From positions 496,001 through 560,000 of the forward strand of contig JBNRSN020000025.1 of NCBI GenBank assembly GCA_051313645.2: a DNA stretch of 64,000 nucleotides, given 5' to 3'. The position numbers and the translations under genes were made by a program. The notes beneath the pieces are model-generated. The model saw only the letters and a list, made by a program, of their open reading frames with translations. It made no database searches and was not told where the DNA came from. The stretch's first letter is position 1. Each line of letters begins with the position of its first letter. Positions 4,858 through 61,307 of the stretch are shown here, in pieces. The DNA comes from Centroscyllium fabricii (taxonomy: Eukaryota).

Positions 4858-4876
4858 ATTTTATTAACCACTGGAA

Positions 4877-8861: not shown

Positions 8862-8989
8862 TCATAAGAACTCTGATTGTATATATTTTGTTAATGAGCA
8901 CCTTGTAATTATTAGTTTTTTTTCTCACCCCATTGTACCTCTGTGTTTTGTTCACCCCGCTGTACTTTTGTTTTTAAAGAAGGGGTGAA

Positions 8990-21500: not shown

Positions 21501-24500
21501 TGTTATTATAGATGGATTTCATTCTCTTATAGATGGATTTCATGCTCTTATAGATCGATTTCATGTTATTATAGATGGATTTCATTCTCTTATAGATGGA
21601 TTTCATGCTCTCATAGATGGATTTCATGTTCTTATAGATGGATTTCATGCTCTTATAGATTGATTTCATGCTCTTATAGATGGATTTCCTGCTCGTATAG
21701 ATAGATTTCATTCTCTTATAGATGGATTTCATGCTCTTATAGGTGGATTTCATGTTCTTGTAGAGAGATTTCATGCTCTTATAGATGGATTTCCTGTTCT
21801 TTTAGATAGATTTCATTCTCTTATAGATGGATTTCATGCTCTTATAGATGGATTTCATGCTCTTATAGATGGATTTCCTGTTCTTTTAGATAGATTTCAT
21901 TCTCTTATAGATAGATTTCATGCTCTTATAGATGGATTTCATGCTCTTATAGATGGATTTCCTGCTCGTATAGATGGATTTCATGTTCTTATAGATGGTT
22001 TTCATTCTCTTATTGATGGATTTCATGCTCTTATAGATGGATTTCATGTTCATATAGATGGATTTCATTCTCTTATAGATAGATTTCATTCTCTTATAGA
22101 TGGATTTCATGTTCTTATAGATGGATTTCATGTTCTTATAGATGGATTTCATGTTCTTATAGATGGATTTCATGTTCTTATAGATTGATTTCATGTTCTT
22201 ATAGAGAGATTTCATTCTCTTATAGATAGATTTCATGCTCTTATAGATGGATTTCATGCTCTTATAGATGGATTTCCTGCTCGTATAGATAGATTTCATT
22301 CTCTTATAGATGGATTTCATGCTCTTATAGATGGATTTCCTGTTCTTCTAGATAGATTTCATTCTCTTATAGATGGTTTTCATGCTCTTATAGATGGATT
22401 TCATGTTCATATAGATGGATTTCATTCTCTTATATATAGATTTCATGTTCGTATAGATGGATTTCATGTTCTTATAGATGGATTTCATGCTCTTATAGAT
22501 GGATTTCATGTTCTTATAGATGGATTTCATGCTCTTATAGATAGATTTCATTCTCTTATAGATGGATTTCATGCTCTTATAGATGGATTTCATGCTCTTA
22601 TAGATGGATTTCATGTTCTTATAGATGGATTTCATGCTCTTATAGATAGATTTCATTCTCTTATAGATGGATTTCATGTTCTTATAGATGGATTTCATGT
22701 TCTTATAGATGGATTTCATGCTCTTATAGATGGATTTCCTGTTCTTTTAGATAGATTTCATTCTCTTATAGATAGATTTCATGCTCTTATAGATGGATTT
22801 CATGCTCTTATAGATGGATTTCCTGCTCGTATAGATGGATTTCATGTTCTTATAGATGGTTTTCATTCTCTTATTGATGGATTTCATGCTCTTATAGATG
22901 GATTTCATGTTCATATAGATGGATTTCATTCTCTTATAGATAGATTTCATTCTCTTATAGATGGATTTCATGTTCTTATAGATGGATTTCATGTTCTTAT
23001 AGATGGATTTCATGTTCTTATAGATGGATTTCATGTTCTTATAGATTGATTTCATGTTCTTATAGAGAGATTTCATTCTCTTATAGATAGATTTCATGCT
23101 CTTATAGATGGATTTCATGCTCTTATAGATGGATTTCCTGCTCGTATAGATAGATTTCATTCTCTTATAGATGGATTTCATGCTCTTATAGATGGATTTC
23201 CTGTTCTTCTAGATAGATTTCATTCTCTTATAGATGGTTTTCATGCTCTTATAGATGGATTTCATGTTCATATAGATGGATTTCATTCTCTTATATATAG
23301 ATTTCATGTTCGTATAGATGGATTTCATGTTCTTATAGATGGATTTCATGCTCTTATAGATGGATTTCATGTTCTTATAGATGGATTTCATGCTCTTATA
23401 GATAGATTTCATTCTCTTATAGATGGATTTCATGCTCTTATAGATGGATTTCATGCTCTTATAGATGGATTTCATGTTCTTATAGATGGATTTCATGCTC
23501 TTATAGATAGATTTCATTCTCTTATAGATAGATTTCATTCTCTTATAGATGGATTTCATGTTTTTATAGATGGATTTCATGCTCTTATAGATAGATTTCA
23601 TGTTCTTATAGATGGATTTCATGCTCTTATAGATAGATTTCATTCTCTTATAGATGGATTTCATGTTCTTATAGATGGATTTCATGTTCTTGTAGAGAGA
23701 TTTCATGTTCTTGTAGAGAGATTTCATGTTCTTATTGATGGATTTCCTGCTCGTGTAGATGGATTTCATGTTCTTATAGATGGATTTCATTCTCTTATAG
23801 ATAGATTTCATTCTCTTATAGATGGATTTCATGCTCTTATAGATGGATTTCATGCTCTTATAGATGGATTTCATGTTCTTATAGATGGATTTCATGCTCT
23901 TATAGATGGATTTCATGTTCTTATAGGTGGATTTCATGTTCTTATAGATGGATTTCATGTTCTTATAGATGGATTTCATGCTCTTATAGGTGGATTTCAT
24001 GTTCTTATAGATGGATTTCATTCTCTTATAGATGGATTTCATGTTCTTATAGATGGATTTCATGTTAATATAGATGGATTTCATTCTCTTATAGATAGAT
24101 TTCATGTTCTTATAGATGGATTTCATGCTCTTATAGATGGATTTCATGCTCTTATAGATGGATTTCATGTTAATATAGATGGATTTCATTCTCTTATAGA
24201 TAGATTTCATGTTGTTATAGATGGATTTCACGCTCTTATAGATGGATTTCATGTTCTTATAGATGGATTTCATGTTCTTATAGATAGATTTCATTCTCAT
24301 ATAGATGGATTTCATTTTCTTATAGATGGATTTCATTCTCTTATAGATGGATTTCATGCTCTTATAGATGGATTTCATTCTCTTATAGATAGATTTCATG
24401 CTCTTATAGATGGATTTCATGTTCTTATAGAGAGATTTCATGCTCTTATAGATAGATTTAATTCTCTAAAAGATGGATTTCATGCTCTAACAGATGGATT

Positions 24501-27500
24501 TCATGCTCTTATAGATGGATTTCATGCTCTTATAGATGGATTTCATGCTCTTATAGATGGATTTCATGTTCTTATAGATAGATTTCATGCTCTTATAGAT
24601 GGATTTCCTGCTCGTATAGATAGATTTCATTCTCTTATAGATAGATTTCATTCTCTTATAGATGGATTTCATGTTCTTATAGATTTCATGCTCTTATAGA
24701 TGGATTTCATGCTCTTATAGATGGATTTCATGTTCTTATAGATTTCATGCTCTTATAGATGGATTTCATGCTCTTATAGATGGATTTCCTGCTCGTATAG
24801 ATAGATTTCATTCTCTTATAGATAGATTTCATTCTCTTATAGATGGATTTCATGCTCTTATAGATGGATTTCATGTTCTTAAAGATGGATTTTTTGCTCT
24901 TAGAGATGGATTTCATGCTCTTATAGATGGATTTCATGTTCTTATAGTTGGATTTCATGTTCTTATAGATAGATTTCATTCTCTTATAGATGGATTTCAT
25001 GTTCTTATAGATGGATTTCATGCTCTTATAGATGGATTTCATGTTCTTATAGATGGATTTCATGCTCTTATAGATGGATTTCATTCTCTTATAGCTGGAT
25101 TTCATGCTCTTATCGATGGATTTCATGCACTTATAGATGGATTTCATGTTCATATAGATAGATTTCATGCTCTTATAGATGGATTTCATGCACTTATAGA
25201 TAGATTTCATGCTCTTATAGATGGATTTCATGCTCTTATAGATAGATTTCATGCTCTTATAGATGGATTTCATGTTCTTATAGATGGATTTCATGTTCTT
25301 ATAGATGGATTTCTTGCTCTTGTAGAGAGATTTCTGCTCTTATAGATAGATTTCATGCTCTTATAGATAGATTTCATGCTCTTATAGATGGATTTCATGT
25401 TCTTATAGATAGATTTCATTCTCTTATAGATAGATTTCATGCTCTTATAGATGGATTTTCTGCTCGTATAGATAGATTTCATTCTCTTATGGATGGATTT
25501 CATGTTCTTATAGATGGATTTCATGCTCTTATAGATGGATTTCATGTTCCTATAGATGGATTTCATGTTCTTATAGATAGATTTCATTCTCTTATAGATA
25601 GATTTCATGTTCTTATAGATGGATTTCATTCTCTTATAGATGGATTTCATGCTCTTATAGATGGATTTCATGTTCTTATAGAGAGATTTCATTCTCTTAT
25701 AGATAGATTTCATGCTCTTATAGATAGATTTCATGCTCTTATAGATGGATTTCATTTTCTTATAGATAGATTTCATGCTCTTATAGATGGATTTCATTCT
25801 CTTATAGATGGATTTCATGCTCTTATAGATGGATTTCATGCTCTTATAGATGGATTTCATGCTCTTATAGATGGATTTCATGTTCTTATAGATAGAATTC
25901 ATGCTCTTATAGATGGATTTCATGCTCTTATGGATAGATTTCATTCTCTTATAGATGGATTTCATGTTCTTATAGGTGGATTTCATGCTCTTATAGATGG
26001 ATTTCATGCTCTTATAGATAGATTTCATTCTCTTATAGATGGATTTCCTGTTCTTATAGATGGATTTCATGTTCTTATAGATGGATTTCATGCTCTTATA
26101 GATAGATTTCATGCTCTTATAGATGGATTTCATGCTCTTATAGATAGATTTCATTCTCTTATAGATAGATTTCATGCTCTTATAGATGGATTTCATGCTC
26201 TTATAGATGGATTTCCTGCTCGTATAGATGGATTTCATGTTCTTATAGATGGTTTTCATTCTCTTATTGATGGATTTCATGCTCTTATAGATGGATTTCA
26301 TGTTCATATAGATGGATTTCATTCTCTTATAGATAGATTTCATTCTCTTATAGATGGATTTCATGTTCTTATAGATGGATTTCATGTTCTTATAGATGGA
26401 TTTCATGTTCTTATAGATGGATTTCATGTTCTTATAGATTGATTTCATGTTCCTATAGAGAGATTTCATTCTCTTATAGATAGATTTCATGCTCTTATAG
26501 ATGGATTTCATGCTCTTATAGATGGATTTCCTGCTCGTATAGATAGATTTCATTCTCTTATAGATGGATTTCATGCTCTTATAGATGGATTTCCTGTTCT
26601 TTTAGATAGATTTCATTCTCTTATAGATGGTTTTCATGCTCTTATAGATGGATTTCATGTTCATATAGATGGATTTCATTCTCTTATATATAGATTTCAT
26701 GCTCTTATAGATGGATTTCATGTTCTTATAGATGGATTTCATGCTCTTATAGATAGATTTCATTCTCTTATAGATGGATTTCATGCTCTTATAGATGGAT
26801 TTCATGCTCTTATAGATGGATTTCATGTTCTTATAGATGGATTTCATGCTCTTATAGATAGATTTCATTCTCTTATAGATAGATTTCATTCTCTTATAGA
26901 TGGATTTCATGTTCTTATAGATGGATTTCATGCTCTTATAGATGGATTTCATGTTCTTATAGATGGATTTCATGCTCTTATAGATAGATTTCATTCTCTT
27001 ATAGATGGATTTCATGTTCTTATAGATGGATTTCATGTTCTTGTAGAGAGATTTCATGTTCTTGTAGAGAGATTTCATGTTCTTATTGATGGATTTCCTG
27101 CTCGTGTAGATGGATTTCATGTTCTTATAGATGGATTTCATTCTCTTATAGATAGATTTCATTCTCTTATAGATGGATTTCATGCTCTTATAGATGGATT
27201 TCATGCTCTTATAGATGGATTTCATGTTCTTATAGATGGATTTCATGCTCTTATAGATGGATTTCATGTTCTTATAGGTGGATATCATGTTCTTATAGAT
27301 GGATTTCATGTTCTTATAGATGGATTTCATGCTCTTATAGGTGGATTTCATGTTCTTATAGATGGATTTCATTCTCTTATAGATGGATTTCATGTTCTTA
27401 TAGATGGATTTCATGTTAATATAGATGGATTTCATTCTCTTATAGATAGATTTCATGTTGTTATAGATGGATTTCATGCTCTTATAGATGGATTTCATGT

Positions 27501-30500
27501 TCTTATAGATGGATTTCATGTTCTTATAGATAGATTTCATTCTCATATAGATGGATTTCATGTTCTTATAGATGGATTTCATTCTCTTATAGATGAATTT
27601 CATGCTCTTATAGATGGATTTCATTCTCTTATAGATAGATTTCATGCTCTTATAGATGGATTTCATGTTCTTATAGAGAGATTTCATGCTCTTATAGATA
27701 GATTTCATTCTCTAAAAGATGGATTTCATGCTCTAACAGATGGATTTCATGCTCTTATAGATGGATTTCATGCTCTTATAGATGGATTTCATGCTCTTAT
27801 AGATGGATTTCATGTTCTTATAGATAGATTTCATGCTCTTATAGATGGATTTCCTGCTCGTATAGATAGATTTCATTCTCTTATAGATAGATTTCATTCT
27901 CTTATAGATGGATTTCATGTTCTTATAGATGGATTTCATGCTCTTATAGATGGATTTCATGTTCTTATAGATGGATTTCATGCTCTTATAGATGGATTTC
28001 ATTCTCTTATAGATACATTTCATGCTCTTATAGATGGATCTCATGCTCTTATAGATCGATTTCCTGCTCGTATAGATAGATTTCATTCTCTTATAGATGG
28101 ATTTCATGCTCTTATAGGTGGATTTCATGTTCTTGTAGAGAGATTTCATGCTCTTATAGATGGATTTCATGCTCTTATAGATGGATTTCCTGCTCGTGTA
28201 GATGGATTTCATGTTCTTATAGATGGATTTCATGCTCTTATAGATGGATTTCATGCTCTTATAGATAGATTTCATGTTCTTATAGATGGATTTCATTCTC
28301 TTATAGATAGATTTCATGCTCTTATAGATGGATTTCATGTTCTTATAGATGGATTTCATGCTCTTATAGATGGATTTCATGTTCTTATAGGTGGATTTCA
28401 TGTTCTTATAGATGGATTTCATGTTCTTATAGATGGATTTCATGCTCTTATAGGTGGATTTCATGTTCTTATAGATGGATTTCATGTTCTTATAGATGGA
28501 TTTCATGCTCTTATAGATGGATTTCATGTTCTTATAGGTGGATTTCATGTTCTTATAGATGGATTTCATGTTCTTATAGATGGATTTCATGCTCTTATAG
28601 GTGGATTTCATGTTCTTATAGATGGATTTCATGCTCTTATAGATGGATTTCATGTTCTTATAGATGGATTTCAAGCTCTTATCGATGGATTTCATTCTCT
28701 TGTAGAGAGATTTCATGTTCTTATAGATGGATTTCATGCTCTTATAAATGGATCTCATTCTCTTATAGATGGATTTCATGCTCTTATAGATGGATCTCAT
28801 TCTCTTATAGATGGATTTCATGCTCTTATAGATGGATCTCATTCTCTTATAGATGGATTTCATGTTCTTATAGATGGATTTCATTCTCTTATAGATGGAT
28901 TTCATGCTCTTATAGATGGATCTCATTCTCTTATAGATGGATTTCATGTTCTTATAGATGGATCTCATTCTCTTGTAGAGAGATTTCATGTTCTTATAGA
29001 TGGATTTCATGCTCTTATAGATGGATCTCATTCTCTTATAGATGGATTTCATGTTCTTATTGATGGATTTCATTCTCTTATAGATGGATTTCATGCTCTT
29101 ATAGATGGATCTCATTCTCTTATAGATGGATTTCATGTTCTTATAGATAGATTTCATGCTCTTATAGATGGATTTCAAGCTCTTATCGATGGATTTCATG
29201 CTCTTATAGATGGATCTCATTCTCTTATAGATGGATTTCATGTTCTTATAGATGGATTTCATTCTCTTGTAGAGAGATTTCATGCTCTTATAGATGGATT
29301 TCATGTTATTATAGATGGATTTCATTCTCTTATAGATGGATTTCATGCTCTTATAGATCGATTTCATGTTATTATAGATGGATTTCATTCTCTTATAGAT
29401 GGATTTCATGCTCTCATAGATGGATTTCATGTTCTTATAGATGGATTTCATGCTCTTATAGATTGATTTCATGCTCTTATAGATGGATTTCCTGCTCGTA
29501 TAGATAGATTTCATTCTCTTATAGATGGATTTCATGCTCTTATAGGTGGATTTCATGTTCTTGTAGAGAGATTTCATGCTCTTATAGATGGATTTCCTGT
29601 TCTTTTAGATAGATTTCATTCTCTTATAGATGGATTTCATGCTCTTATAGATGGATTTCATGCTCTTATAGATGGATTTCCTGTTCTTTTAGATAGATTT
29701 CATTCTCTTATAGATAGATTTCATGCTCTTATAGATGGATTTCATGCTCTTATAGATGGATTTCCTGCTCGTATAGATGGATTTCATGTTCTTATAGATG
29801 GTTTTCATTCTCTTATTGATGGATTTCATGCTCTTATAGATGGATTTCATGTTCATATAGATGGATTTCATTCTCTTATAGATAGATTTCATTCTCTTAT
29901 AGATGGATTTCATGTTCTTATAGATGGATTTCATGTTCTTATAGATGGATTTCATGTTCTTATAGATGGATTTCATGTTCTTATAGATTGATTTCATGTT
30001 CTTATAGAGAGATTTCATTCTCTTATAGATAGATTTCATGCTCTTATAGATGGATTTCATGCTCTTATAGATGGATTTCCTGCTCGTATAGATAGATTTC
30101 ATTCTCTTATAGATGGATTTCATGCTCTTATAGATGGATTTCCTGTTCTTCTAGATAGATTTCATTCTCTTATAGATGGTTTTCATGCTCTTATAGATGG
30201 ATTTCATGTTCATATAGATGGATTTCATTCTCTTATATATAGATTTCATGTTCGTATAGATGGATTTCATGTTCTTATAGATGGATTTCATGCTCTTATA
30301 GATGGATTTCATGTTCTTATAGATGGATTTCATGCTCTTATAGATAGATTTCATTCTCTTATAGATGGATTTCATGCTCTTATAGATGGATTTCATGCTC
30401 TTATAGATGGATTTCATGTTCTTATAGATGGATTTCATGCTCTTATAGATAGATTTCATTCTCTTATAGATGGATTTCATGTTCTTATAGATGGATTTCA

Positions 30501-42500: not shown

Positions 42501-43318
42501 TATAGATGGATTTCATGTTCTTATAGATGGATCTCATTCTCTTATAGATGGATTTCATGCTCTTATAGATGGATTTCATTCTCTTGTAGAGAGATTTCAT
42601 GCTCTTATAGATAGATTTCATGTTATTATAGATGGATTTCATTCTCTTATAGATGGATTTCATGCTCTTATAGATGGATCTCATTCTCTTATAGATAGAT
42701 TTCATGTTATTATAGATGGATTTCATTCTCTTATAGATGGATTTCATGCTCTTATAGATGGATCTCATTCTCTTATAGATGGATTTCATGTTCTTATAGA
42801 TGGATCTCATTCTCTTATAGATGGATTTCATGTTCTTATCGATGGATTTCATTCTCTTATAGATGGATTTCATGTTCTTATAGATGGATTTCATTCTCTT
42901 ATAGATGGATTTCATGCTCTTATAGATGGATCTCATTCTCTTATAGATGGATTTCATGCTCTTATAGATGGATCTCATTCTCTTATAGATAGATTTCATG
43001 CTCTTATAGATGGATTTCAAGCTCTTATCGATGGATTTCATTCTCTTGTAGAGAGATTTCATGCTCTTATAGATGGATTTCATGCTCTTATAGATGGATT
43101 TCATGTTCCTATAGATGGATTTCATGTTCTTATAGATAGATTTCATTCTCTTGTAGATAGATTTCTTTCTCTTATAGATAGATTTCATGTTCTTATAGAT
43201 GGATTTCATGTTCTTATAGAGAGACTTCATTCTCTTATAAATTTCATGCTCTTATAGATGGATTTCATGCTCTTATAGATGGATTTCATTCTCTAAAAGA
43301 TGGATTTCATGCTCTAAC
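12599..43318. repeat. 21-bp satellite, main block with higher-order repeats
   Basis: Continuous monomers ATG(C/T)TCTT or ATTCTCTT plus ATAGAT(G/A)GATTTC; identical ORF-track translations at 861, 2667, 3246 and 7803 bp offsets. Confidence 0.99.
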
Positions 43319-46300
43319 TGTCACAGGGTGCCTGTTCCTTTAAGAATGAGAAACAGTTTTTGTGGTGCTTCACAGCTGTTTTGAGGACTGGGTTCCCTTG
43401 TTATGTCATTAATTATTCTATTATCTGTCTATTGCTAGTTGTGTCCTGCTCTCATTGCCTCCAAGTTATTGGCTATCACCAAAGGGTTTGCTTGCTGGTT
43501 TTAGTTCTTAAACTGGAGGTAGGCATGAGAGCAGCGCGGGATCATTGTACTGTATTGTATTGTAATGTGTTACGGAACTGGACTTCTACCACACATTCTA
43601 CAGGCCACTGGACAAAGTGGTTACTGCTGTTGAGCTGAGTGGCCGTCAGAGGCAAGGAGGTTTGGAGATCGACTGACTCAGCCTTTACTTTGCACTCTGC
43701 TATTTCAGGTGCTCAGGCTGAGTTGCCCGACAGGGTCATTGGGGTGGAACTCATATCACTCTGCCTTGACAGTGCGCCCTGCTATCGGGAACCCAGCAAT
43801 GGACAACTCATATGTGGAGTAAGGGCGTTCCCCTGCTTGTGGATCTGAATCCACTACTTGGACATTCGTTTCTTCATCCGAACCCAGGTTTGGACATTGG
43901 ATACCTGTATGCAGAAGCTGTTCCCAAATCCTCTACGAAGTATTTGGATTGTGATGTCCTACTCGCAGAGGAGAACTTGTTCGTTTCTCTTTAAGTATTT
44001 GGATTGTGATGTCCTGCTTCTAGAGGAGAGCTCGTTTAAGTTGGACAGTTATGCCTGGACTTGTATTCCTCGGGAGAATGACGCGCTTGGTTGCGTGGCA
44101 CCCCTCTATCCATTACTCACTATTTTGGGAAGTCTGTGCCAGTCTTTAGATAAGACTTGTGTTCAATATGTTTCTTATATATTTGTATGTTTATACTATT
44201 TTATGGGGTTGTGTAATAAAGGAGTTTAGTTATATAAGACGTTTCAGTGTCTCTGCATTTGGGCCTCGCCCTCATTCCATTTACACCTACCCGCTACAGA
44301 ATGATCCCGCCACGCCAAATTTGGGGCTCAGCAGACACTGTAGCGTCTAAGCACTCCTTAAATTTTTTTTTGGTAGACTGTTGTCTCTTCTCTGTACCCT
44401 CCGCCCACCCTATTTCGGCATATTGGGTATTTGGGCCGTCGCCGTCGGCCCTTAAGGGGGGGGTCCTGTCACAGGGTGCCTGTTCCTTTAAGAATGAGAA
44501 ACAGTTTTTGTGGTGCTTCACAGCTGTTTTGAGGACTGGGTTCCCTTGTTATGTCATTAATTATTCTATTATCTGTCTATTGCTAGTTGTGTCCTGCTCT
44601 CATTGCCTCCAAGTTATTGGCTATCACCAAAGGGTTTGCTTGCTGGTTTTAGTTCTTAAACTGGAGGTAGGCATGAGAGCAGCGCGGGATCATTGTACTG
44701 TATTGTATTGTAATGTGTTACGGAACTGGACTTCTACCACACATTCTACAGGCCACTGGACAAAGTGGTTACTGCTGTTGAGCTGAGTGGCCGTCAGAGG
44801 CAAGGAGGTTTGGAGATCGACTGACTCAGCCTTTACTTTGCACTCTGCTATTTCAGGTGCTCAGGCTGAGTTGCCCGACAGGGGCATTGGGGTGGAACTC
44901 ATATCACTCTGCCTTGACAGTGCGCCCTGCTATCGGGAACCCAGCAATGGACAACTCATATGTGGAGTAAGGGCGTTCCCCTGCTTGTGGATCTGAATCC
45001 ACTACTTGGACATTCGTTTCTTCATCCGAACCCAGGTTTGGACATTGGATACCTGTATGCAGAAGCTGTTCCCAAATCCTCTACGAAGTATTTGGATTGT
45101 GATGTCCTACTCGCAGAGGAGAACTTGTTCGTTTCTCTTTAAGTATTTGGATTGTGATGTCCTGCTTCTAGAGGAGAGCTCGTTTAAGTTGGACAGTTAT
45201 GCCTGGACTTGTATTCCTCGGGAGAATGACGCGCTTGGTTGCGTGGCACCCCTCTATCCATTACTCACTATTTTGGGAAGTCTGTGCCAGTCTTTAGATA
45301 AGACTTGTGTTCAATATGTTTCTTATATATTTGTATGTTTATACTATTTTATGGGGTTGTGTAATAAAGGAGTTTAGTTATATAAGACGTTTCAGTGTCT
45401 CTGCATTTGGGCCTCGCCCTCATTCCATTTACACCTACCCGCTACAGAATGATCCCGCCACGCCAAATTTGGGGCTCAGCAGACACTGTAGCGTCTAAGC
45501 ACTCCTTAAATTTTTTTTTTGTAGACTGTTGTCTCTTCTCTGTACCCTCCGCCCACCCTATTTCGGCATATTGGGTATTTGGGCCGTCGCCGTCGGCCCT
45601 TAAGGGGGGGGTCCTGTCACAGGGTGCCTGTTCCTTTAAGAATGAGAAACAGTTTTTGTGGTGCTTCACAGCTGTTTTGAGGACTGGGTTCCCTTGTTAT
45701 GTCATTAATTATTCTATTATCTGTCTATTGCTAGTTGTGTCCTGCTCTCATTGCCTCCAAGTTATTGGCTATCACCAAAGGGTTTGCTTGCTGGTTTTAG
45801 TTCTTAAACTGGAGGTAGGCATGAGAGCAGCGCGGGATCATTGTACTGTATTGTATTGTAATGTGTTACGGAACTGGACTTCTACCACACATTCTACAGG
45901 CCACTGGACGAAGTGGTTACTGCTGTTGAGCTGAGTGGCCGTCAGAGGCAAGGAGGTTTGGGGATCGACTGACTCAGCCTTTACTTTGCACTCTGCTATT
46001 TCAGGTGCTCAGGCTGAGTTGCCCGACAGGGGCATTGGGGTGGAACTCATATCACTCTGCCTTGACAGTGCGCCCTGCTATCGGGAACCCAGCAATGGAC
46101 AACTCATATGTGGAGTAAGGGCGTTCCCCTGCTTGTGGATCTGAATCCACTACTTGGACATTCGTTTCTTCATCCGAACCCAGGTTTGGACATTGGATAC
46201 CTGTATGCAGAAGCTGTTCCCAAATCCTCTACGAAGTATTTGGATTGTGATGTCCTACTCGCAGAGGAGAACTTGTTCGTTTCTCTTTAAGTATTTGGAT

Positions 46301-46595
46301 TGTGATGTCCTGCTTCTAGAGGAGAGCTCGTTTAAGTTGGACAGTTATGCCTGGACTTGTATTCCTCGGGAGAATGACACGCTTGGTTGCGTGGCACCCC
46401 TCTATCCATTACTCACTATTTTGGGAAGTCTGTGCCAGTCTTTAGATAAGACTTGTGTTCAATATGTTTCTTATATATTTGTATGTTTATACTATTTTAT
46501 GGGGTTGTGTAATAAAGGAGTTTAGTTATATAAGACATTTCAGTGTCTCTGCATTTGGGCCTCGCCCTCATTCCGTTAACACCAAATCCGCTACA
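43319..46595 (+). mobile_element. Non-coding tandem LTR element (LTR-int-LTR-int-LTR, 1148-bp period; TRIM-like)
   Basis: LTRs 43319-44298, 44467-45446 and 45615-46595 (TGTCACA...CTACA); 168-bp internal parts ending in a hairpin plus PPT AAGGGGGGGG; 5-bp TSD CTAAC (43314-43318, 46596-46600). Confidence 0.88.
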
Positions 46596-46758
46596 CTAAC
46601 AGATGGATTTCATGCTCTTATAGATGGAGTTCATGCTCTTATAGATGGATTTCTTGCTCTTATAGATGGATTTCATGCTCTTATAGATGGATTTCATGTT
46701 CTTATAGATAGATTTCATGCTCTTATAGATGGATTTCCTGCTCGTATAGATAGATTTC
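46596..46758. repeat. 21-bp satellite, block C
   Basis: About 8 monomers between the two LTR insertions. Confidence 0.95.
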
Positions 46759-47756
46759 TGTAACGGAGGTGTGTGGGGCCCAAATGCAAAGACACTGATA
46801 AAACTGTCTAGGTCTTAAATCCTTTATATACCAAACAGTAATGAAAAAACATACATGCATACATTCAAGAAGTTACAAAACATAATTAAATGGCATACAA
46901 ATAGTTATAACAGAAAACAAGTTCCTTTACGAACTGGTACTAAACTTCCCTTGGTGCATGGAACGATACGCAACCAAGCGCATCATAGTGTTGTGAATTA
47001 CATGTCCAACCCTGACTACAGGTGGTAGAGAGAAAATGTCCAGGAAGTTGAATTAGGAATACTCCCGAGTCCGCCCTACGGTCGAAACTCACTCCAACGG
47101 AGTCTTCAGAGGAAGAATCCATCTTCACAAACAAGGAAACTCCTCACATACCCTACTGAAACGTCCAAACCTCAGTTCGGGTGATATCGACCAATGTCCA
47201 GGAAGTTGAATTAGGAATACTCCCGAGTCCGCCCTATGGTCGAAACTCACTCCAACGGAGTCTTCAGAGCAAGAATCCCTGATCTACTTAGCAGGGGAAC
47301 GCCCTTACTTATCTAATGGAATGTCCAAACCTGAGTTCAGGAGGTAAAGTGCAATGTCCTGAATGTAGACAACCGTAGTTCTCCGAAGTCCGCTCCACAG
47401 CTAAGACTTTACTCTACCCGAGTTTCCTGAAGAGAATACATCATCTACAAGGCAGGGGAACACCCACACCCATTGCCTCTCCAGCAGCTCAGACAGCAAC
47501 CACTTCTTCCAATGGTTCGTAGTAATGAGTAGTAAGTAGAGTCTAATGATCCGGCCTCTGCCTGGTCAAAGCACCCAGCTTATAAGCCAAAACAGGCAAA
47601 CCAGATTATTTAGTGCTAGCCAATAAGCTGCAGGTATTGATAACCAGGAACACACAGGTATGTGAAACAGTTAATTGAAATACAATGAACCAAAACAGAG
47701 AAACAAAACCTAGAATTCCAAAATGGATTCCTTAAAGGGGAATGCCATCTGTGACA
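46759..47756 (-). mobile_element. Solo LTR related to the tandem element, opposite orientation
   Basis: Minus strand starts TGTCACAG and ends CCGTTACA; shares AGTAAGGGCGTTCCCCTGCT, CAGTGTCT.TGCATTTGGGCC and GGATCATT with the 980-bp LTR; GATTTC on both flanks; internal ~85-bp duplication (~47036 and ~47194). Confidence 0.82.
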
Positions 47757-50700
47757 GATTTCATTCTCTTGTAGAGAGATTTCATGCTCTTCTAGATGGA
47801 TTTCATGCTCTTCTAGATGGATTTCATGTTCTTATAGATAGATTTCATTCTCTTATAGATAGATTTCATGTTCTTATAGATGGATTTCATTCTCTTATAG
47901 ATGGATTTCATGCTCTTATAGATGGATTTCATGTTCTTATAGAGAGATTTCATTCTCTTATAGATAGATTTCATGCTCTTATAGATGGATTTCATGCTCT
48001 TATAGATGTATTTCATGTTCTTATAGAGAGATTTCATGCTCTTATAGATGGATTTCATGCTCTTATAGATAGATTTCATTCTCTAAAAGATGGATTTCAT
48101 GCTCTAACAGATGGATTTCATGCTCTTATAGATGGAGTTCATGCTCTTATAGATGGATTTCATGATCTTATAGATGGATTTCATGCTCTTATAGATGGAT
48201 TTCATGTTCTTATAGATAGATTTCATGCTCTTATAGATGGATTTCTTGCTCGTATAGATAGATTTCATACTCTTATAGATAGATTTCATTCTCTTATAGA
48301 TGGATTTCATGCTCTTATAGATGGATTTCATGTTCCTATAGATGGATTTCATGTTCTTATAGATAGATTTCATTCTCTTATAGATAGATTTCATGTTCTT
48401 ATAGATGGATTTCATTCTCTTATAGTTGGATTTCATGCTCTTATAGATGGATTTCATGTTCTTATAGAGAGATTTCATTCTCTTATAGATAGATTTCATG
48501 CTCTTATAGATGGATTTCATGCTCTTATAGATGGATTTCATGTTCTTATAGAGAGATTTCATGCTCTTATAGATGGATTTCATGCTCTTATAGATAGATT
48601 TCATTCTCTAACAGATGATTTCATGCTCTTATAGATGGAGTTCATGCTCTTATAGATGGATTTCATGATCTTATAGATAGATTTCATTCTCTTATAGATG
48701 GAGTTCATGCTCTTGTAGAGAGATTTCATGCTCTTATAGATAGATTTCATGCTCTTATAGATAGATTTCATGCTCTTATAGATGGATTTCATGTTCTTAT
48801 AGATAGATTTCATTCTCTTATAGATAGATTTCATGCTCTTATAGATGGATATCATGCTCTTATAGATGGATTTCCTGCTCGTATAGATAGATTTCATGCT
48901 CTTATAGATAGATTTCATTCTCTTATAGATAGATTTCATGCTCTTATAGATGGATTTCATGCTCTTATAGATGGATTTCCTGCTCGTATAGATAGATTTC
49001 ATTCTCTTATGGATGGATTTCATGTTCTTATAGATGGATTTCATGCTCTTATAGATGGATTTCATGTTCCTATAGATGGATTTCATGTTCTTATAGATAG
49101 ATTTCATTCTCTTATAGATGGATTTCATGCTCTTATAGATGGATTTCATGTTCTTATAGAGAGATTTCATTCTCTTATAGATAGATTTCATGCTCTTATA
49201 GATGGATTTCATGCTCTTATAGATGGATTTCATGTTCTTATAGAGAGATTTCATGCTCTTATAGATGGATTTCATGCTCTTATAGATAGATTTCATTCTC
49301 TAAAAGATGGATTTCATGCTCTAAAAGATGGATTTCATGCTCTTATAGATGGAGTTCATGCTCTTATAGATGGATTTCATGATCTTATAGATGGATTTCA
49401 TGCTCTTATAGATGGATTTCATGTTCTTATAGATAGATTTCATGCTCTTATAGATGGATTTCTTGCTCGTATAGATAGATTTCATACTCTTATAGATAGA
49501 TTTCATTCTCTTATAGATAGATTTCGTGCTCTTGTAGAGAGATTTCATGCTCTTATAGATAGATTTCATGCTCTTATAAATAGATTTCATGCTCTTATAG
49601 ATGGATTTCTTGCTCGTATAGATAGATTTCATACTCTTATAGATAGATTTCATTCTCTTATAGATAGATTTCATGCTCTTGTAGAGAGATTTCATGCTCT
49701 TATAGATAGATTTCATGCTCTTATAAATAGATTTCATGCTCTTATAGATAGATTTCATGCTCTTATAAATAGATTTCATGCTCTTATAGATAGATTTCAT
49801 TCTCTTATAGATAGATTTCATGCTCTTATAGATGGATTTCATGCTTTTATAGATGGATTTCCTGCTCGTATAGATAGATTTCATGCTCTTATACATAGAT
49901 TTCATTCTCTTATAGATAGATTTCATGCTCTTATAGATGGATTTCCTGCTCGTGTAGATAGATTTCATGCTCTTATAGATAGATTTCATTCTCTTATAGA
50001 TAGATTTCATGCTCGTATAGATGGATTTCATGCTCTTATAGATGGATTTCATGATCTTATAGATGGATTTCCTGCTCGTATAGATAGATTTCATTCTCTT
50101 ATAGATGGAGTTCATGCTCTTGTAGAGAGATTTCATGCTCTTATAGATAGATTTCATGCTCTTATAGATAGATTTCATGCTCTTATAGATGGATTTCATG
50201 TTCTTATAGATAGATTTCATTCTCTTATAGATAGATTTCATGCTCTTATAGATGGATTTCATGCTCTTATAGATGGATTTCCTGCTCGTATAGGTAGATT
50301 TCATGCTCTTATACATAGATTTCATTCTCTTATAGATAGATTTCATGCTCTTATAGATAGATTTCATTCTCTTATAGATAGATTTCATGCTCGTATAGAT
50401 GGATTTCATGCTCTTATAGATAGGTTTCATTCTCTTATAGATAGATTTCATGCTCTTATAGATGGATTTCATGTTCTTATAGATAGATTTCATTCTCTTA
50501 TAGATAGATTTCATGCTCTTTTAGATGGATTTCATGTTCTTATAGATGGATTTCATGTTCTTATAGATGGATTTCATGCTCTTAAAATGGATTTCATGTT
50601 CTTATAGATACATTTCATGCTCTTTTAGATGGATTTCATGCTCTTATAGATGAATTTCATGCTCTTATAGATGGATTTCATGCTCTTATAGATGGATTTC

Positions 50701-54143: not shown

Positions 54144-55481
54144 TATGTGGGCGTCGCTGGCTGGCTAGGCCTGCATTTAGTGCCCAGAGGGACGACACGG
54201 TGGCGCAGTGGTTAGCACTGCTGCCTCGCAATAATGAGCTCCTGGGTTCGAATCCTGCTTGGCCCGGGACCTCTCTGCGTGGAGTTTGCATGTTCTCCCC
54301 GTGTTCGTGTGGGTTTCCTCCGGGTACTCCGGTTTCCTCCCACCACCCAAAGACATGCAGGTTAGGTGAATTGGAGATACTAAAAATTGCCCATGAGTAT
54401 GTGTGTGAGATATAGTTCTTAGATTTGGGGGGTGCTGGGGGATATGGGGAGAGGGTAGTGTGGTAAACCACTGTATGTTATATATATATGTCTCCCCCTT
54501 GTGTCCCCTCCCTGTAACTGCACGTAATGTCTCCCTGCCAGGGAGGACTCACCTGGGAGGACTCCGCTCCTCGGCTTCCTCCCCAGACTCCGCCCACTGG
54601 GTATAAAAGTGAGAGCACACCTGAGTGCTCTCACTTTGGCTTGGAAGACTGTCGGACCTGTGTACAGTTCTATGTGAATAAAAGCCTCGATTACATCTCA
54701 CCAACGACTGGAGTAATTGATTGTGCATCAATTTAATTCACATAGTTTTTTTTCTGCAACAAGGATTGAGAAGTTCCTGAGACCCGAAAGACTTAATCTT
54801 GTCCCGCGATCAGCAGGCGCTGAGCGGGCCTTCACTCACTGGGTCTCCTGCTTCGAATCCTTCCTCGCGGAATCCCGCCTGATCGTGGACACAGACCAAC
54901 GGAAGCTCAACGTCCTGCGGGCCCAGGTCAGCCCCGAGCTCTTCAGCCTAATCGAGGGCGAAACGACCTACAGGAGCGCCCTGGACGCCCTAAAAGCTCG
55001 GTTCACGATACCGACGAACGAGATCTACACCAGGCATCTACTGTTGAACAGGAAACAACAGCCTGGTGAGTCTTTAATGAACTATATGGCAGCATTGCGA
55101 ACGCTCGTGCGCGCCTGCAATTGTAGGCCGCTGACAGCCAACGAGCACCAGGACATAATCCTAAGGTATGCGCTAATGGCTGGACTCAGGTCATCCTATA
55201 CGCGCCAGCGGCTGCTGGAGCAAAGTAACATAGGCCTGGCGGCAGCTGAAGCGCTGACAAAATCCCTGGAGGCTGCGCACTTGCAAAGAGAGTCCTACGG
55301 CCAGCACAGTGCGCGAGCGCTGACCTCGTGGGCGGGCGAGATGACTTTCGCTGCGCCCCCACTCACGCCCGCGGCAGCGGCCCAACCCCAGAAGTGCTAT
55401 TTCTGTGGTCAGTCAAAACACCCCAGGCAGTGCTGCCCTGCTAAAGAAGCGCTGTGCTCCAGCTGCAAGAAGAAGGGACAT

Positions 55482-57792
55482 AAGAACATAAGAACATAAG
55501 AAATAGGAGCAGGAGTAGGCCAATCGGCCCCTCGAGCCTGCTCCGCCATTCAACAAGATCATGGCTGATCTGATCCCAACCTCAATTTTATTTTAACTTT
55601 CCATCCCACCCAAACATATGTGATCACCCGGGAGAGGCGAAAAACCAGATAAAAAACCCAGCAGCCAATTTGGGATAAAAAATCTGGGAAATTCCTCTCC
55701 GACCCATCTAAGCGATCGAAAACTAGTCCAGGAGATCACATGGCCGATCTGAACTTATCCTCATGTCCACTTGCCTGCCCGCTCACCATAACCCTTAATT
55801 CCCTTTTCTTCCAGGAAACTGTCTATCTCTGATTTAAATTTATTCAAAGTAGTAGCTTCCACAGCTCTCTGGGGCAGCAAATTCCACAGCCCCACCACCC
55901 TCTGGCTGAAGAAATTCCTCCTCATCTCCGTCCTAAATGAGTCACCCCTTATCCTTAGACTATGACCCCTGGTTCTGGACTCTCCTACCATCGGGAACAT
56001 TCTTCCTGCATCAAGTCTGTCCAGACCATTTAGAATTTTATACGTTTCGATGAGATCCCCTCTCAATCTTCTAAACTCCAGAGAGTACAAACCCAGTCTA
56101 CCCAGTCTTTCCCCATACGTCAATCCTGCCATCCCAGGTATCAGCCTGGTGAATCTCCTCTGCACTCCCTCCATGGCAAGAACGTCCTTCCTTAGATAAG
56201 GAGACCAAAACTGCACACAGTACTCAAGGCTTGGTCTCACCAAAGCCCTGTACAACTGCAGCAAGACCTCCCTATTCCTGTACTCAAAACCTCTCGCTAT
56301 GAAGGCCAACATACCATTTGCCTTCTTAACCGCCTGCTGCACCTGCAAGCTCACCTTTAGCGACCGGTGCACCAGGACACCCAGGTCTCGTTGTACTTCC
56401 CTTTCTCCTAATCTATTGCCATTTAGATAATAGTCAGCATTTCTATTTTTTCCCCCAAAGTGGATAACCTCGCATTTATCCACATTATACTGCATCTGCC
56501 ATGTATCAGCCCACTCGCCCAACATGTCCAAATCATCCTGGAGCATCCTGCTATCCTTCTCGCAGCACACACGTCCTCCCAGCTTTGTGTCATCTGCAAA
56601 CTTGGAGACATTAGATTTAGTTCCCTTTTCTAAATCATTAATGTATATTGTGAATAGCTGGGGTCCCAGGACTGAGCCCTGTGGTACCCCACTAGTCACT
56701 GCCCGCCACCCAGAAAAAGACCCATTTAATCCCACTCTCTGCTTTCTGCCTGCCAACCAATTTTCAATCCAAGACAATACCTTGCCCCCAATCCCATGTG
56801 CCTTAACTTTAAATGCTAGTCTCTTGTGCGGGACCTTGTCGAATGCCTTCTGAAAGTCCAAGTATATCACATCTACTGGTTCTCCCTGATCAATTTTCCC
56901 AGTTAAATCCTCAAAAAATTCCAGCAGATTAGTCAAGCATGATTTACCTTTTGTAAATCCATGTTGACTTTGTCTAATCCTGCCGCTGCTTTTAAAGTGC
57001 TCAGTGATTTCATCCTTTATTATGGACTCCAGCATCTTTCCCACTACCGATGTCAGGCTTACTGGTCTGTAATTTCCTGCTTTCTCCCTACCACCCTTCT
57101 TGAATAGTGGGGTAACATTTGCCACCCTCCAATCCATGGGTACAGTTCCAGATTCCATCGATTGCTGGAAGATAATCAGCAATGCATCTACTATTTCCAT
57201 GGCTACCTCCCTAAGTACCCTAGGATGTAGACCATCAGGCCCCGGGGATTTATCGGCCTTCAATCCCTTCAATTTCCCTAAAACCATTTCCCTGCAAATA
57301 CGGATATCCTTTAATTCCTCCCCATCATCAAACCTTATTTTTCTTAATATCTCTGGGAGGTTACTTGTGTCCTCCTTTGTAAACACAGAGCCAAAATATG
57401 AATTTAATTGTTCAGCCATTTCTTTGTTCCCCATTATCACTTCTCCTGCTTCTGACTGTAAGGGACCTACACTTGATTTCACCAATCTTTTCCTCTTTAC
57501 ATATCTATAAAAGCTCTTACAGTCTGTTTTTATATTCTTTGCAAGCTTACTTTCATATTCTATTTTCCCTTTCTTAATTAATCCTTTTGTCCTCCTTTGT
57601 TGAATCCTAAACTGTTCCCAATCATCAGGGTTACCGTTTTTTTTGGCCAGTTTATATGCCCTTTCCTTTAATCTTATGCTGTCCCTAATTTCTTTCGTCA
57701 GCCACGGTTGCGTTACCCTTTTTGTTTTATTCTTGTGCCACACTGGGATGAACAACTTCTGTAGCTCATCCATGTGGCCTTTGAATATTTGC
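55482..57792 (-). mobile_element. 5'-truncated CR1 LINE nested in gag of copy 3
   Basis: 670-aa RT ORF, (ATGTTCTT)n tail, CAT duplicated at the junctions; removal restores KKGHCAAVCK. Confidence 0.95.
55761..57773 (-). CDS. CR1 ORF2 C-terminal part (reverse transcriptase), no endonuclease
   Basis: GNYRPVSLTS, YLDFQKAFDKV, GVPQGSVLGP, KFADD. Confidence 0.9.
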   Translation of the reverse strand: MDELQKLFIPVWHKNKTKRVTQPWLTKEIRDSIRLKERAYKLAKKNGNPDDWEQFRIQQRRTKGLIKKGKIEYESKLAKNIKTDCKSFYRYVKRKRLVKSSVGPLQSEAGEVIMGNKEMAEQLNSYFGSVFTKEDTSNLPEILRKIRFDDGEELKDIRICREMVLGKLKGLKADKSPGPDGLHPRVLREVAMEIVDALLIIFQQSMESGTVPMDWRVANVTPLFKKGGREKAGNYRPVSLTSVVGKMLESIIKDEITEHFKSSGRIRQSQHGFTKGKSCLTNLLEFFEDLTGKIDQGEPVDVIYLDFQKAFDKVPHKRLAFKVKAHGIGGKVLSWIENWLAGRKQRVGLNGSFSGWRAVTSGVPQGSVLGPQLFTIYINDLEKGTKSNVSKFADDTKLGGRVCCEKDSRMLQDDLDMLGEWADTWQMQYNVDKCEVIHFGGKNRNADYYLNGNRLGEREVQRDLGVLVHRSLKVSLQVQQAVKKANGMLAFIARGFEYRNREVLLQLYRALVRPSLEYCVQFWSPYLRKDVLAMEGVQRRFTRLIPGMAGLTYGERLGRLGLYSLEFRRLRGDLIETYKILNGLDRLDAGRMFPMVGESRTRGHSLRIRGDSFRTEMRRNFFSQRVVGLWNLLPQRAVEATTLNKFKSEIDSFLEEKGIKGYGERAGKWT

Positions 57793-60700
57793 CATTGTGC
57801 AGCAGTCTGTAAGAGCAGACCATCCCCCTCCAGCAGCGCCGCGTGGGCTCCATCAGAGCGGCCATTGTGGGGCTACCAGCATTCACCCCCACGTGGCGAC
57901 TGTGGCAGCGGCCATCTTGGATCAGACGGCCATCTTGCACCCTCCCCCCCTCCACACAGTGAATACGGGGGCAGCCATCTTGGACCAGCACCACGTTTTC
58001 GCCCACAAGGTGGCCATCTTGAGGCCTACTCAGCCGCGTGCGACCAGTGGACATCACCACGCCTGACGACGGAGCTCCCGCAGCTCGCATCGGTGACACT
58101 GGACCAGACCCGGCCTCACCAACTGGCGCGATCGAAAATGGACATTGAGGTAAACGGCTGTACGCTTAATTGCCTTTTTGATTCGGGGAGTACCGAAAGT
58201 TTCATACACCCAGACACTGTACGGAGGCTTTCCCTCACGGTACTCCCCGCGCGCCAGCGGATCCTAATGGCCTCCAACGCCGCGTCGGCGGAAGTCGGTG
58301 GGATTTGCGTAGTAACATTGAAAGTGTGGGGTACCGTGTACGACCATTTTAAACTATTAGTCCTCCCCCACCTCTGTGCTGCCGTCCTACTGGGCCTTGA
58401 CTTTCAGAGCCACCTCGACAGCGTTATCATGAAATACGGCGATCCCCTCCCCCCCGTTGACTGGCTGTAGCCAGCAGTTCGCGCAACGCGACCCCACACC
58501 GTTTGCAGCCTTTCGACCCTTAAAGTCTCCCCTCCCTCACTATTTGCTAACCTCACCCCCGACTGTAAGCCCATAGCTACCAAGAGCAGGCGCTACAGCA
58601 CGGGGGACAGACTGTTTATTAAGTCTGAGGTCCAGCGGTTACTGAAGGAGGGGATCATCGAGGCCAGCAACAGCCCCTGGAGAGCCCAGGTTGTAGTCGT
58701 CAAGACCGGCACCAAACACCGCCTGGTCATCGATTACAGCCAGACGATCAACCGCTTCACACAATTGGACGCATACCCCCTGCCTCGCATCTCAGACATG
58801 GTCAATGAGATTGCGCAGTACAGGGTGTTCTCTACAATTGACCTTAAGTCCGCATACCATCAGCTCCCCATCCACCCTGGAGACCGCCACTTCACCGCCT
58901 TTGAGGCGAATGGCCGCCTCTACCACTTTTTGAGGGTCCCTTTCGGGGTCTTCCAGCGGGAGATGGACCGGATGGTGGACCAAAACGGGCTGCTGGCTAC
59001 CTTCCCCTACCTTGACAACGTCACCATCTGTGGCCACGATATGAGGGACCACGATGCCAACCTGGCCAAATTCCTCCACACCGCCAAGCTCCTCAACCTC
59101 ACTTACAACGAGGAAAAATGTGTTTTCCGCACCACCCGCCTCGCCATCCTGGGGTGCGTCGTGGCAAACGGGGTCATCGGCCCGGACCCCGAACGCATGC
59201 GTCCCCTCATGGAGCTCCCCCTCCCCCAGAGCCCAAAGGCCCTGAAAAGGTGCCTGGGCTTCTTTTCATACTACGCCCAATGGGTCCCCCAGTACACTGA
59301 CAAAGCCCGCCCCCTCCTGAAATCAACCTCCTTTCCCCTGTCGAACGAGGCTCGTGCAGCCTTCGACAGCATCAGAGCAGCCATCGCCAAGGCGACCATG
59401 CACGCTGTGGACGAATCCGCCCCGTTCCAGGTGGAAAGTGATGCCTCTGACTTTGCCCTGGCCGCCACTCTCAACCAGTCTGGTCGGCCGGTAGCCTGCT
59501 TCTCCCGCACCCTCCATGGCCCCGAAATCAGGCATTCATCAGTGGAGAAGGAGGCCCAGGCCATCGTGGAAGCGGTGCGGCACTGGAGACACTACCTGGC
59601 CGGTAGAAGATTTACCCTGCTCACTGACCAGCGGTCAGTGGCTTTCATGTTTAGTAACAATCAGCGGGGTAACATAAAAAACGACAAAATCCTAAGGTGG
59701 AGAATTGAACTGTCCACCTATAATTACGACATCTTGTACCGGCCCGGTAAACTCAATGAGCCCCCGGACGCACTATCCCGTGGAACCTGTGCCAGCGCAC
59801 AAGTGGATAGACTGCAAGCCATCCACAATGACCTCTGCCATCCCGGAGTCACGCGGCTGTTTCATTTCGTGAAGTCCCGCAACCTGCCCTACTCCATCTC
59901 GGACGTCCGGGAAGTCACCAGGCACTGCCCCACCTGCGCGGAGTGCAAACCTAAATTTTTCCGGCCTAGCAGAGCCAGCTTGGTCAAAGCCACCCGCCCC
60001 TTTGAACGACTGAGCGTCGATTTCAAGGGCCCCCTCCCCTCCATCAACAGGAACGGGTACTTCCTGACAGTGATTGATGAGTACTCACGCTTCCCATTCG
60101 CAATCCCGTGCCCAGACATGACCACAGCCACAACCATCAGGTGTCTGCACAGCATCTTCACCATGTTCGGCTACCCCAACTATATTCACTCAGACAGGGG
60201 GTCAGCATTCATGAGTGACGAGCTGCGCCAGTACCTGCTGTCCAAAGGGATTGCGACAAGCAGGACCACCAGCTACAACCCCCGGGGCAACGGGCAGGTT
60301 GAGCGGGAGAATGGCACCGTCTGGAAGGCCATCAGCCTTGCCCTGCGGTCCAGGGGCCTCCCCGGGTTTCCGCTGGCAGGAGGTCCTCCCAGATGCCCTC
60401 CACTCCATCAGGTCACTGCTCTGCACCGCCACCAATGCCACCTCCCACGAGCGGATGTTTTGCTTCCGCAGGAAGTCTGCATCCGGGACCTCGCTGCCAA
60501 CGTGGCTGACGTCCCCCGGGCCTGTCTTGCTCCAGAGACACGTGAGGGCCCACAAGACAGACCCCCTGGTCGAGAGGGTGCAGCTTCTCCACGCCAACCC
60601 CCAGTACGCCTACGTGGCGTTCCCAGACGGGCGGGAGGACACGGTCTCCATTAGGGACCTTGTGCCCTCGGGGGCCCCAGAAACCATCAGCCACCACCGA

Positions 60701-61307
60701 CTTCGGAAGACATCGTACGGACGGAGATCGGACAACTGCTGGAGACTGCACGGCTGTCGACCCCGGAAACTACCCCAAGACCCCCGGAAACGACCCCAAG
60801 ACCTGCTCTGCGATGGTCGACTTGGCAGACCAGACCGCCAGACAGACTGAATATTTGACTTTGTGTATATATATTAAAAGATCACTCACCCCCGCCTTCA
60901 TTTTTTTAAACAGGGGGTGAATGTGGTAAACCACTGTATCTTATATATATATGTCTCCCCCTTGTGTCCCCTCCCTGTAACTGCACGTAATGTCTCCCTG
61001 CCAGGGAGGACTCACCTGGGAGGACTCAGCTCCTTGGCTTCCTCCCCAGGCTCCGCCCACTGGGTATAAAAGTGAGAGCACACCTGAGTGCTCTCACTTT
61101 GGCTTGGAAGACCGTCGAACCTGTGTACAGTTCTATGTGAATAAAAGCCTCGATTACATCTCACCAACGACTGGAGTAATTGATTGTGCATCAGGTAGTA
61201 GGGGGGTGCTGGGTTTGGATGATCAGCCATGATCTCATCAAAATGGTGGAGCAGGCTCGAAGGGCCGAGTGGCCTACTCCTGCTCCTATCTTCTGTATTT
61301 CTGTGTA

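Follow-up and report, generated by a model that had tools for sequence, protein, structure and literature searches.

A non-autonomous, putatively self-primed LTR retrotransposon of the Tf1/sushi type, arranged in tandem within a satellite of Centroscyllium fabricii

Introduction

The Tf1/sushi group comprises the Ty3/gypsy chromoviruses Tf1, Tf2, Tj1, Tosmo1-3, Tcry1 and sushi-ichi. It contains the closest described relatives of the element reported here, which lies in a 64,000-nt stretch of DNA from Centroscyllium fabricii (GenBank assembly GCA_051313645.2, contig JBNRSN020000025.1, positions 496,001 to 560,000 of the forward strand), hereafter the window. Self-priming has been demonstrated for Tf1 and implicated from fungi to vertebrates (PMC4600332, PMC6317226). 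In the fold described for Tf1, a central primer duplex is accompanied by two further duplexes that join the neighbours of the primer site with the long terminal repeat (LTR) downstream of the primer (10.1101/2022.12.06.519325). A second point of comparison is provided by TRIMs (miniature retrotransposons with terminal repeats), defined by a length below 1,000 bp (1,500 bp in a wider sense), repeats of 100-250 bp and a transfer RNA (tRNA) site (PMC6934838, 10.1101/010850); the classical criteria of size, repeats and primer type are also given in PMC3532108. Non-autonomous LTR elements of 1.5-4 kb, or 'long TRIMs', have been treated in sugar beet as an unnamed part of a size continuum (PMC13570524). 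TRIMs of the Helenus type occur in fishes, namely LTR-11_DR of zebrafish, which forms tandem arrays, and LTR1_LCh and LTR2_LCh of the coelacanth (PMC10886601). The novelty for vertebrates implied by an earlier account of this DNA, based on its letters and ORFs (hereafter the sequence-only reading), is not supported in view of these published elements: vertebrate self-priming, vertebrate TRIMs and three-LTR tandems have each been reported already.

Here, we describe a tandem LTR element at positions 43319-46595 of the window, which we classify as a non-autonomous derivative of the Tf1/sushi group because the geometry of its self-primer matches that of coding relatives and its gag remnant is predicted to pair with the U5 region of its LTR. 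We consider it probable that this is a multi-copy element, derived by internal deletion from a chromodomain-bearing Ty3/gypsy element of that group and mobilised in trans, whose LTR-plus-interior unit was later duplicated in place.

Structure of the tandem element

The element has the order LTR1-interior 1-LTR2-interior 2-LTR3, with all features on the forward strand. All three LTRs begin with TG and end with CA, and a single 5-bp target-site duplication, CTAAC, flanks the whole (43314-43318 on the left, matched by 46596-46600 on the right). LTR1 (43319-44298) and LTR2 (44467-45446) are both 980 bp long and differ at one site, as do the two 168-bp interiors (44299-44466 and 45447-45614). LTR3 (45615-46595, 981 bp) shows four body substitutions relative to LTR2 and a different U5 end. 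The monomer length is 980+168+980=2,128 bp.

Within LTR1, a TATA-like box, CTTAAA (43507-43512), and an AATAAA poly(A) signal (44215-44220, 84 nt from the LTR end) suggest a subdivision into a U3 of ~217 nt, an R of ~700 nt and a U5 of ~60 nt. The first base of the TATA-like box lies 29 nt 5' of a putative 11-nt self-primer (43536-43546), which would form the 5' end of the RNA. A block in U5 (44237-44268) contains TGCATTTGGG, which is common to a neighbouring solo LTR and to two coding relatives, L008 and L009, described below. The hexamer TGGACA occurs five times in the presumed R region (43609-44063) and four times in the solo LTR, and a 20-nt block (43818-43837) is identical in both LTRs; these repeats and the shared block are candidate packaging or factor-binding sites.

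The interior is made up of a primer site, a decayed gag start, filler, a pol-end hairpin and a polypurine tract. The primer-binding site, AATGATCCCGC (44300-44310), begins 1 nt after the LTR. It is followed by a leader (44322-44348), a remnant of the gag start that has lost its start codon and aligns with the gag starts of the relatives L007 and L008/L009. Towards the 3' end, a 6-bp hairpin, GGGCCG-7nt-CGGCCC (44433-44451), whose motif corresponds to the last pol codons in chromodomain elements, precedes a 10-nt polypurine tract (44454-44463) that stops 3 nt before the next LTR.

The interior is non-coding. A 161-codon ATG-initiated open reading frame (ORF) runs from it into the next LTR and belongs to no Pfam family; none was found in either of the two element ORFs tested. 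The primer site does not start with TGG, the tRNA-type opening, and ARAGORN detected no tRNA gene in the 64-kb window. An Rfam search over 43300-47800 gave no credible match, the sole hit having an E value of 3.6. The sequence-only reading had described the LTR-interior-LTR-interior-LTR order within one 5-bp duplication, the lack of coding capacity, the absence of a tRNA primer-binding site, and the hairpin and purine tract closing the interior, and it is upheld on each of these points by the mapped coordinates, the two ORFs, the tRNA search and the form of the site.

Self-priming signature and U5:leader pairing

The primer-binding site is the exact 11-nt complement of the self-primer within the LTR. 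This had been noted before, together with the CTTAAA upstream, and both observations were reproduced. When the LTR was resampled to first order 20,000 times, 14 of the resampled sequences gave a complement of at least 11 nt starting from any of the first five interior positions. The 11 nt fall inside the 9-13 nt range of Tf1/sushi self-primers, and the 29 nt between CTTAAA and the primer compare with 28-32 nt in four related families. In the folded nascent RNA (43536-44466), the primer duplex has a predicted probability of ~0.98.

Eight nucleotides of the primer site are, as we take it, complementary to the 3' end of 18S ribosomal RNA (rRNA), which raises the alternative that a host RNA, either this one or an internal tRNA fragment, serves as the primer. 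Half-tRNA priming is known in other LTR elements (PMC6317226, PMC10886601). However, the element's own LTR offers a longer and perfect match, at the distance from a TATA box seen in four related families; the primer sites of the relatives track their own LTR sequence; and the TGG start is missing. Host-RNA priming is, in our judgement, highly improbable, and we retain self-priming.

The U5 block and the interior leader pair in a predicted duplex of -36.6 kcal/mol, a feature absent from the sequence-only reading. This energy was matched by 9 of 3,000 and 5 of 1,000 resampled leaders, and U5 was the best partner for the leader among the LTR windows tested. A two-helix stem between U5 and the first gag codons, with differing letters, is also present in L007, L008 and L009, and its energy lies above background in L007 (6/1,000) and L008 (20/1,000). 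The predicted U5:leader helix would cross the primer helix as the duplexes of the Tf1 'pretzel' do, with a third duplex that is weak in the predicted fold.

Coding relatives and the search for a partner

A degenerate pattern built from the 3' end of the interior was searched in metagenome contigs and retrieved 10 loci. Four of them (L001, L003, L005 and L010) matched by chance, in coding DNA of bacterial appearance, and were excluded before families were counted. The other six are LTR elements of four families, three of which have a chromodomain. L009 is complete, comprising gag, protease, reverse transcriptase, RNase H, integrase, a Tf2-like SH3 domain and a chromodomain, and among solved structures Ty3 Gag-Pol is its best relative; L008 and L002 also end in a chromodomain. 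In these three loci, the 3' motif represents the last pol codons and is followed by a purine tract.

Each of the four families has a TATA-like box and, 28-32 nt after it, a self-complement of 10-11 nt; their primer sites start 1-3 nt behind the LTR (the LTR end is uncertain in L002, and L006 has one mismatch). The primer letters differ between the window element, L007, L002 and the pair L008/L009, which share theirs; among families, therefore, primer and site change together. The six loci have LTRs of 598-664 bp. Their chromodomain and self-complement suggest that the retrieved families belong to the Tf1/sushi group. Since the length, spacing and position of the self-primer in the window element match these coding relatives, the origin from a sushi-like chromovirus put forward in the sequence-only reading is supported.

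The family of L004, L006 and L007 has both the self-primer and the U5:gag-start stem, and the 678-codon frame behind the primer site of L007, the one frame scanned, is repetitive and has no Pfam domain. This family is probably a further sushi-type derivative that is non-autonomous and has a long interior. In L004, L006, L007 and L008, one LTR lies between a 3' and a 5' interior, an arrangement that may reflect a collapsed assembly and was not counted as tandem.

None of the 10 loci is a direct partner of the window element, as blastn searches with its LTR, its interior and the solo LTR gave no hit among them at an E value of 0.01. Two pattern scans of viral contigs returned no matches, and neither did a search at the protein level with the L009 pol region. 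An intact Gypsy element in the window (4576-9271) was considered as a partner and rejected, as it has no chromodomain and its LTRs are unrelated.

A multi-copy family in sequencing-run contigs

Nine out of 18 sequencing runs, one of them labelled as a fish gut metagenome, share at least half of the sampled element words. No RNA run containing the element was listed among the 18, a result that has no bearing on expression. The contigs of four of the 18 runs, the fish gut run not among them, were aligned to one full element period, divided into 30 bins. In two of these (X1 and X7), all 30 bins were covered, the interior was represented end to end, and the share of aligned sequence continuing into unlike DNA was 0. 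Five listed interior substitution sites were each found in 17-41 contigs of X1. A 5-nt deletion at 44308 accounts for about one third of the depth (28,400 of 82,004 units in X1; 2,314 of 7,733 in X7); it drops one copy of a doubled CGCCA, and the primer site stays whole. Indels at 43544 and 44310 remove repeated letters and leave both 11-mers intact. No substitution in the primer or its site was found among the 40 substitution rows listed (39 substitution and 7 indel rows exist besides these). The ratio of interior to LTR in summed contig depth was 0.52 in X1 and 0.35 in X7, a value that is not a copy number and was not used for counting.

The other two runs, X10 and X12, bear other organism labels and contained LTR parts only (25 and 10 of the 30 bins, respectively), with zero depth in three interior-only bins; no inference was drawn from them. 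A joint from 44647 to 43501 was considered as a sign of tandem copies and rejected, being merely a circular permutation of the reference unit.

The interior occurs in many diverse copies that are linked to this LTR, and its end-to-end coverage by many variant contigs indicates a multi-copy family rather than a one-off deletion. That the element is non-autonomous and, from the coverage in X1 and X7, multi-copy, as had been suggested, is supported, and variant contigs in two of the four runs show that the interior is not unique to this locus.

Copies could also accumulate passively if the element were an inert relic, its priming site inherited from a coding ancestor and its copies spread by satellite or segmental duplication, not by retrotransposition. 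Both LTR insertions do sit in a satellite that duplicates by blocks, and contigs are unable to show independent insertion sites. Nevertheless, the interior has many sequence variants, the tandem copy lies outside the 7.8-kb duplicated block of the satellite, the U5:leader stem is still paired despite the lost gag start codon, and the target duplication is perfect. These features make an inert relic very unlikely, and we favour a family spread by retrotransposition.

Origin of the tandem

LTR1 plus interior 1 and LTR2 plus interior 2 differ at 2 of 1,148 sites (43736 and 44372), both beside homopolymer runs, and at both sites the letter of the first unit hardly occurs in the aligned contigs. 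Between LTR3 and LTR2 there are four body substitutions, of which three are CpG transitions, and a cluster of differences within the last 21 nt; LTR2 equals LTR1 at four of five body sites and across the U5 cluster. The predominance of CpG transitions is as expected from ageing after insertion, and the mismatch between the outer LTRs speaks against copying of the tandem as a unit through RNA. Most simply, a two-LTR insertion would have aged before an unequal exchange took place recently, its crossover falling within the first 295 bp of the LTR. In plants, the tandems of non-autonomous elements most often take the three-LTR form with a single duplication (10.1101/010850, PMC13570524), and recombination and template switching have both been proposed for the origin of tandems (PMC7215508).

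If the tandem had instead been made during reverse transcription or by recombination of complementary DNA (cDNA), and inserted or extended as a unit, a single target duplication around the whole would be expected, as is observed. Template switching has been proposed for Cassandra arrays (PMC7215508), and Tf1 cDNA gives rise to single-LTR tandems where copies already exist (PMC11042837). In addition, G at 44279, a U5 letter of the LTR3 type, represents 22% of the depth in X1 and 31% in X7; given how common this letter is in the family, LTR3 may derive from a different template. Models based on read-through or an extra strand transfer, however, predict matching outer LTRs and an odd middle one, whereas LTR1 matches LTR2 here and LTR3 differs, and only LTR1 and LTR2 share the CpG-type change found at LTR position 296. 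We regard this origin as distinctly unlikely.

The second unit may also be an assembly duplicate, in which case the element would be the same and the true locus would read LTR-interior-LTR. This explanation was kept because it gives the same site pattern and because an exact duplicate of 7,063 nt, offset by 7,803, occurs in the adjoining satellite. It also fits the two differences between the units, which are homopolymer-adjacent and place near-absent letters in the first unit. On the other hand, exact recent duplications are normal in satellites, and three-LTR tandems, the commonest form in plants, have been confirmed by polymerase chain reaction in maize (10.1101/010850, PMC13570524). An assembly duplicate is unlikely, if worth keeping in mind, and unequal exchange within the locus is the path we prefer.

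Satellite setting and neighbouring elements

Both LTR insertions are hosted by a 21-bp satellite array (12599-52235) of more than 1,600 units, in which the CTAAC-type variant is present uninterrupted at five other sites in the window. A satellite block of ~7.8 kb (20097-27930) recurs 7,803 bp further along as a near-perfect duplicate, the two copies being identical over runs of 7,063 and 770 nt.

The solo LTR (46759-47756, minus strand, 998 bp) belongs to a related family and is flanked by a 6-bp duplication, GAAATC, against 5 bp for the tandem. With its duplications (46753-47762), it is inserted ~160 bp from the tandem in the same satellite. Its TATA box, TATAAG (47579-47584, minus strand), lies 29 nt before a candidate self-primer, GCCGGATCATT (47545-47555, minus strand), one letter off the primer of the tandem element; the sequence-only reading had singled out this same pair. 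The solo LTR carries the conserved U5 block and is otherwise distant from the tandem LTR, with 601 identities in 811 aligned columns (1,166 columns including gaps). Internally, it contains a repeat considerably longer than 100 bp.

Two Gypsy families were identified elsewhere in the window. The first (4576-9271; LTRs at 4576-4857 and 8990-9271) has neither a TGG-type tRNA site nor a chromodomain. It is a young copy, with LTRs 98% alike and a 5-bp duplication, GCTTT. A 1,284-codon stop-to-stop frame (5007-8861) encodes protease, reverse transcriptase, RNase H and integrase, and the first ATG after the LTR falls in a different, short frame. The second (54459 to ~61193; LTRs at 54459-54730 and ~60921-61193) also lacks a TGG-type tRNA site. 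In each family, a 10-nt stretch that overlaps the element's own AATAAA is complemented by the first 15 nt after the 5' LTR. These complements lie ~70 nt after the TATA box, differ in letters between the families and are unlike the Tf1 geometry; they may represent another mode of self-priming or a masking of the 5' poly(A) signal. Two 5'-truncated reverse-transcriptase frames of long interspersed nuclear elements (10661-12616 and 55761-57872, minus strand) are ~80% alike in the part of the DNA compared, and the latter interrupts the Gypsy element at 54459. Such elements and the short repeats of the window seem to resemble those of cartilaginous fishes.

Discussion

To our knowledge, bench proof of self-priming exists only in fission yeast, and the mechanism is inferred for vertebrate sushi elements. 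Following that model, RNA polymerase II would start at or near 43536 and produce an RNA of ~1.85 kb with a long R. The first 11 nt of this RNA, complementary to the site behind the LTR, are predicted to anneal there, and U5, complementary to the decayed gag start, would anneal to it and give the crossed 'pretzel'. As is known for Tf1, the RNase H of the partner would free the 11-mer and its reverse transcriptase would extend it, after which the purine tract would prime the plus strand. The integrase of the partner would insert the cDNA with the 5-bp duplication, which is itself observed. At this locus, a two-LTR copy would have entered the satellite and aged slightly before its LTR-plus-interior unit was duplicated by unequal exchange between LTRs.

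Several results weigh against this reading. A coding partner sharing these LTRs was not found among the 10 metagenome loci or in the window Gypsy. The similarity of the 3' motif to that of the relatives is circular because the motif was the search pattern, which does not apply to the 5' features. Among the contigs listed (215 loose ends and 4,412 pieces exist besides these), none bridges the whole interior and none includes two target duplications. Ageing alone does not account for the clustered U5 differences of LTR3, which need a second template or conversion. The U5:leader energy does not exceed background in L009 (227/1,000) or L002 (137/1,000). Moreover, the probability of primer pairing falls to 0.001 once the folded RNA is lengthened to 44700, beyond the second primer copy, and the minimum-energy fold of the full-length RNA takes the U5:leader helix and leaves the primer unpaired, a forced primer duplex costing +2.5 kcal/mol. 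As the folding program cannot score both crossed helices jointly, these results neither show nor exclude the full crossed fold; the 5' copy of the primer is synthesised first and would thus be favoured during transcription. Finally, the start site, RNA, primer and cDNA are predicted here from the DNA sequence.

At the priming step, the element is like a Tf1/sushi element, and in its dependence on a partner it is like a TRIM. It shares with the former a putative 5'-LTR self-primer complementary to a site behind the LTR, and flanking duplexes of the 'pretzel' type (10.1101/2022.12.06.519325) are predicted for it, as well as an LTR start that fits the Sushi motif TGTYANR and an AATAAA near the LTR end (PMC3601003). 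The LTR 3' end, CGCTACA, is one letter off the Sushi motif CNTNACA; the solo LTR conforms to this motif. The ends of the interior match those of the chromodomain elements L008, L009 and L002. Unlike Tf1/sushi elements, it has no gag, pol or chromodomain and is, therefore, not a coding member of the group. Its LTR of 980 bp, with a presumed R of ~700 nt, also contrasts with the 598-664 bp of the retrieved relatives.

A short non-coding interior with a primer site and a purine tract is likewise found in TRIMs (plant TRIMs, Cassandra, PbTRIM and biv-TRIM), and the three LTRs and two interiors within one target duplication correspond to the L3I2 form of tandem-array TRIMs. In contrast to TRIMs, however, the monomer is 2,128 bp long, the LTRs measure 980-981 bp and the primer site is self-complementary. 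Size, repeat length and primer type all fail the classical definition, so the TRIM label used in the sequence-only reading does not stand in that sense. Helenus is also a vertebrate, non-autonomous, high-copy element with tandem arrays; its tRNA-like LTR sequence, priming by a tRNA 3' end and, in animals, 4-bp duplications have no counterpart here (PMC10886601). No tRNA- or 5S-derived LTR sequence, a trait of Helenus, Cassandra and Ajax, was detected with ARAGORN, and Rfam gave no credible match to one. Classification as a large retrotransposon derivative (LARD) was rejected, given a monomer of 2.1 kb as against more than 4 kb with a long conserved interior. The intermediates described in sugar beet are similar in their long LTRs, very short interior, solo LTRs and three-LTR tandems with duplications; they are plant elements, and the term 'self-priming' is absent from the main text of that paper (PMC13570524). 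We found no paper on a self-primed non-autonomous vertebrate element in a search of main texts, with subscription papers and Repbase outside its scope, where the family may be filed.

What is well supported is an element that is a natural deletion of a self-priming retrotransposon, assembled from known parts, and that reveals no new mechanism. Its value lies in what it offers as a natural deletion series of selected cis signals: the family is high-copy and non-coding, and 168 bp separate its LTRs. The primer site, the U5:gag-start stem, the pol-end hairpin and the purine tract are those kept in the absence of protein. Such families escape annotation that requires a tRNA site or a short total length. 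More tentatively, and with less than even confidence, fishes could carry unrecognised, abundant and recently active self-primed parasites of sushi chromoviruses that retain only cis signals. The gag start would survive purely as an arm of the priming fold, and the 168 bp would constitute a minimal interior for tRNA-independent priming in a vertebrate, with the L004/L006/L007 family as an independent second case. The chromodomain integrase of the partner would then steer such elements into satellite DNA and seed tandem arrays there.

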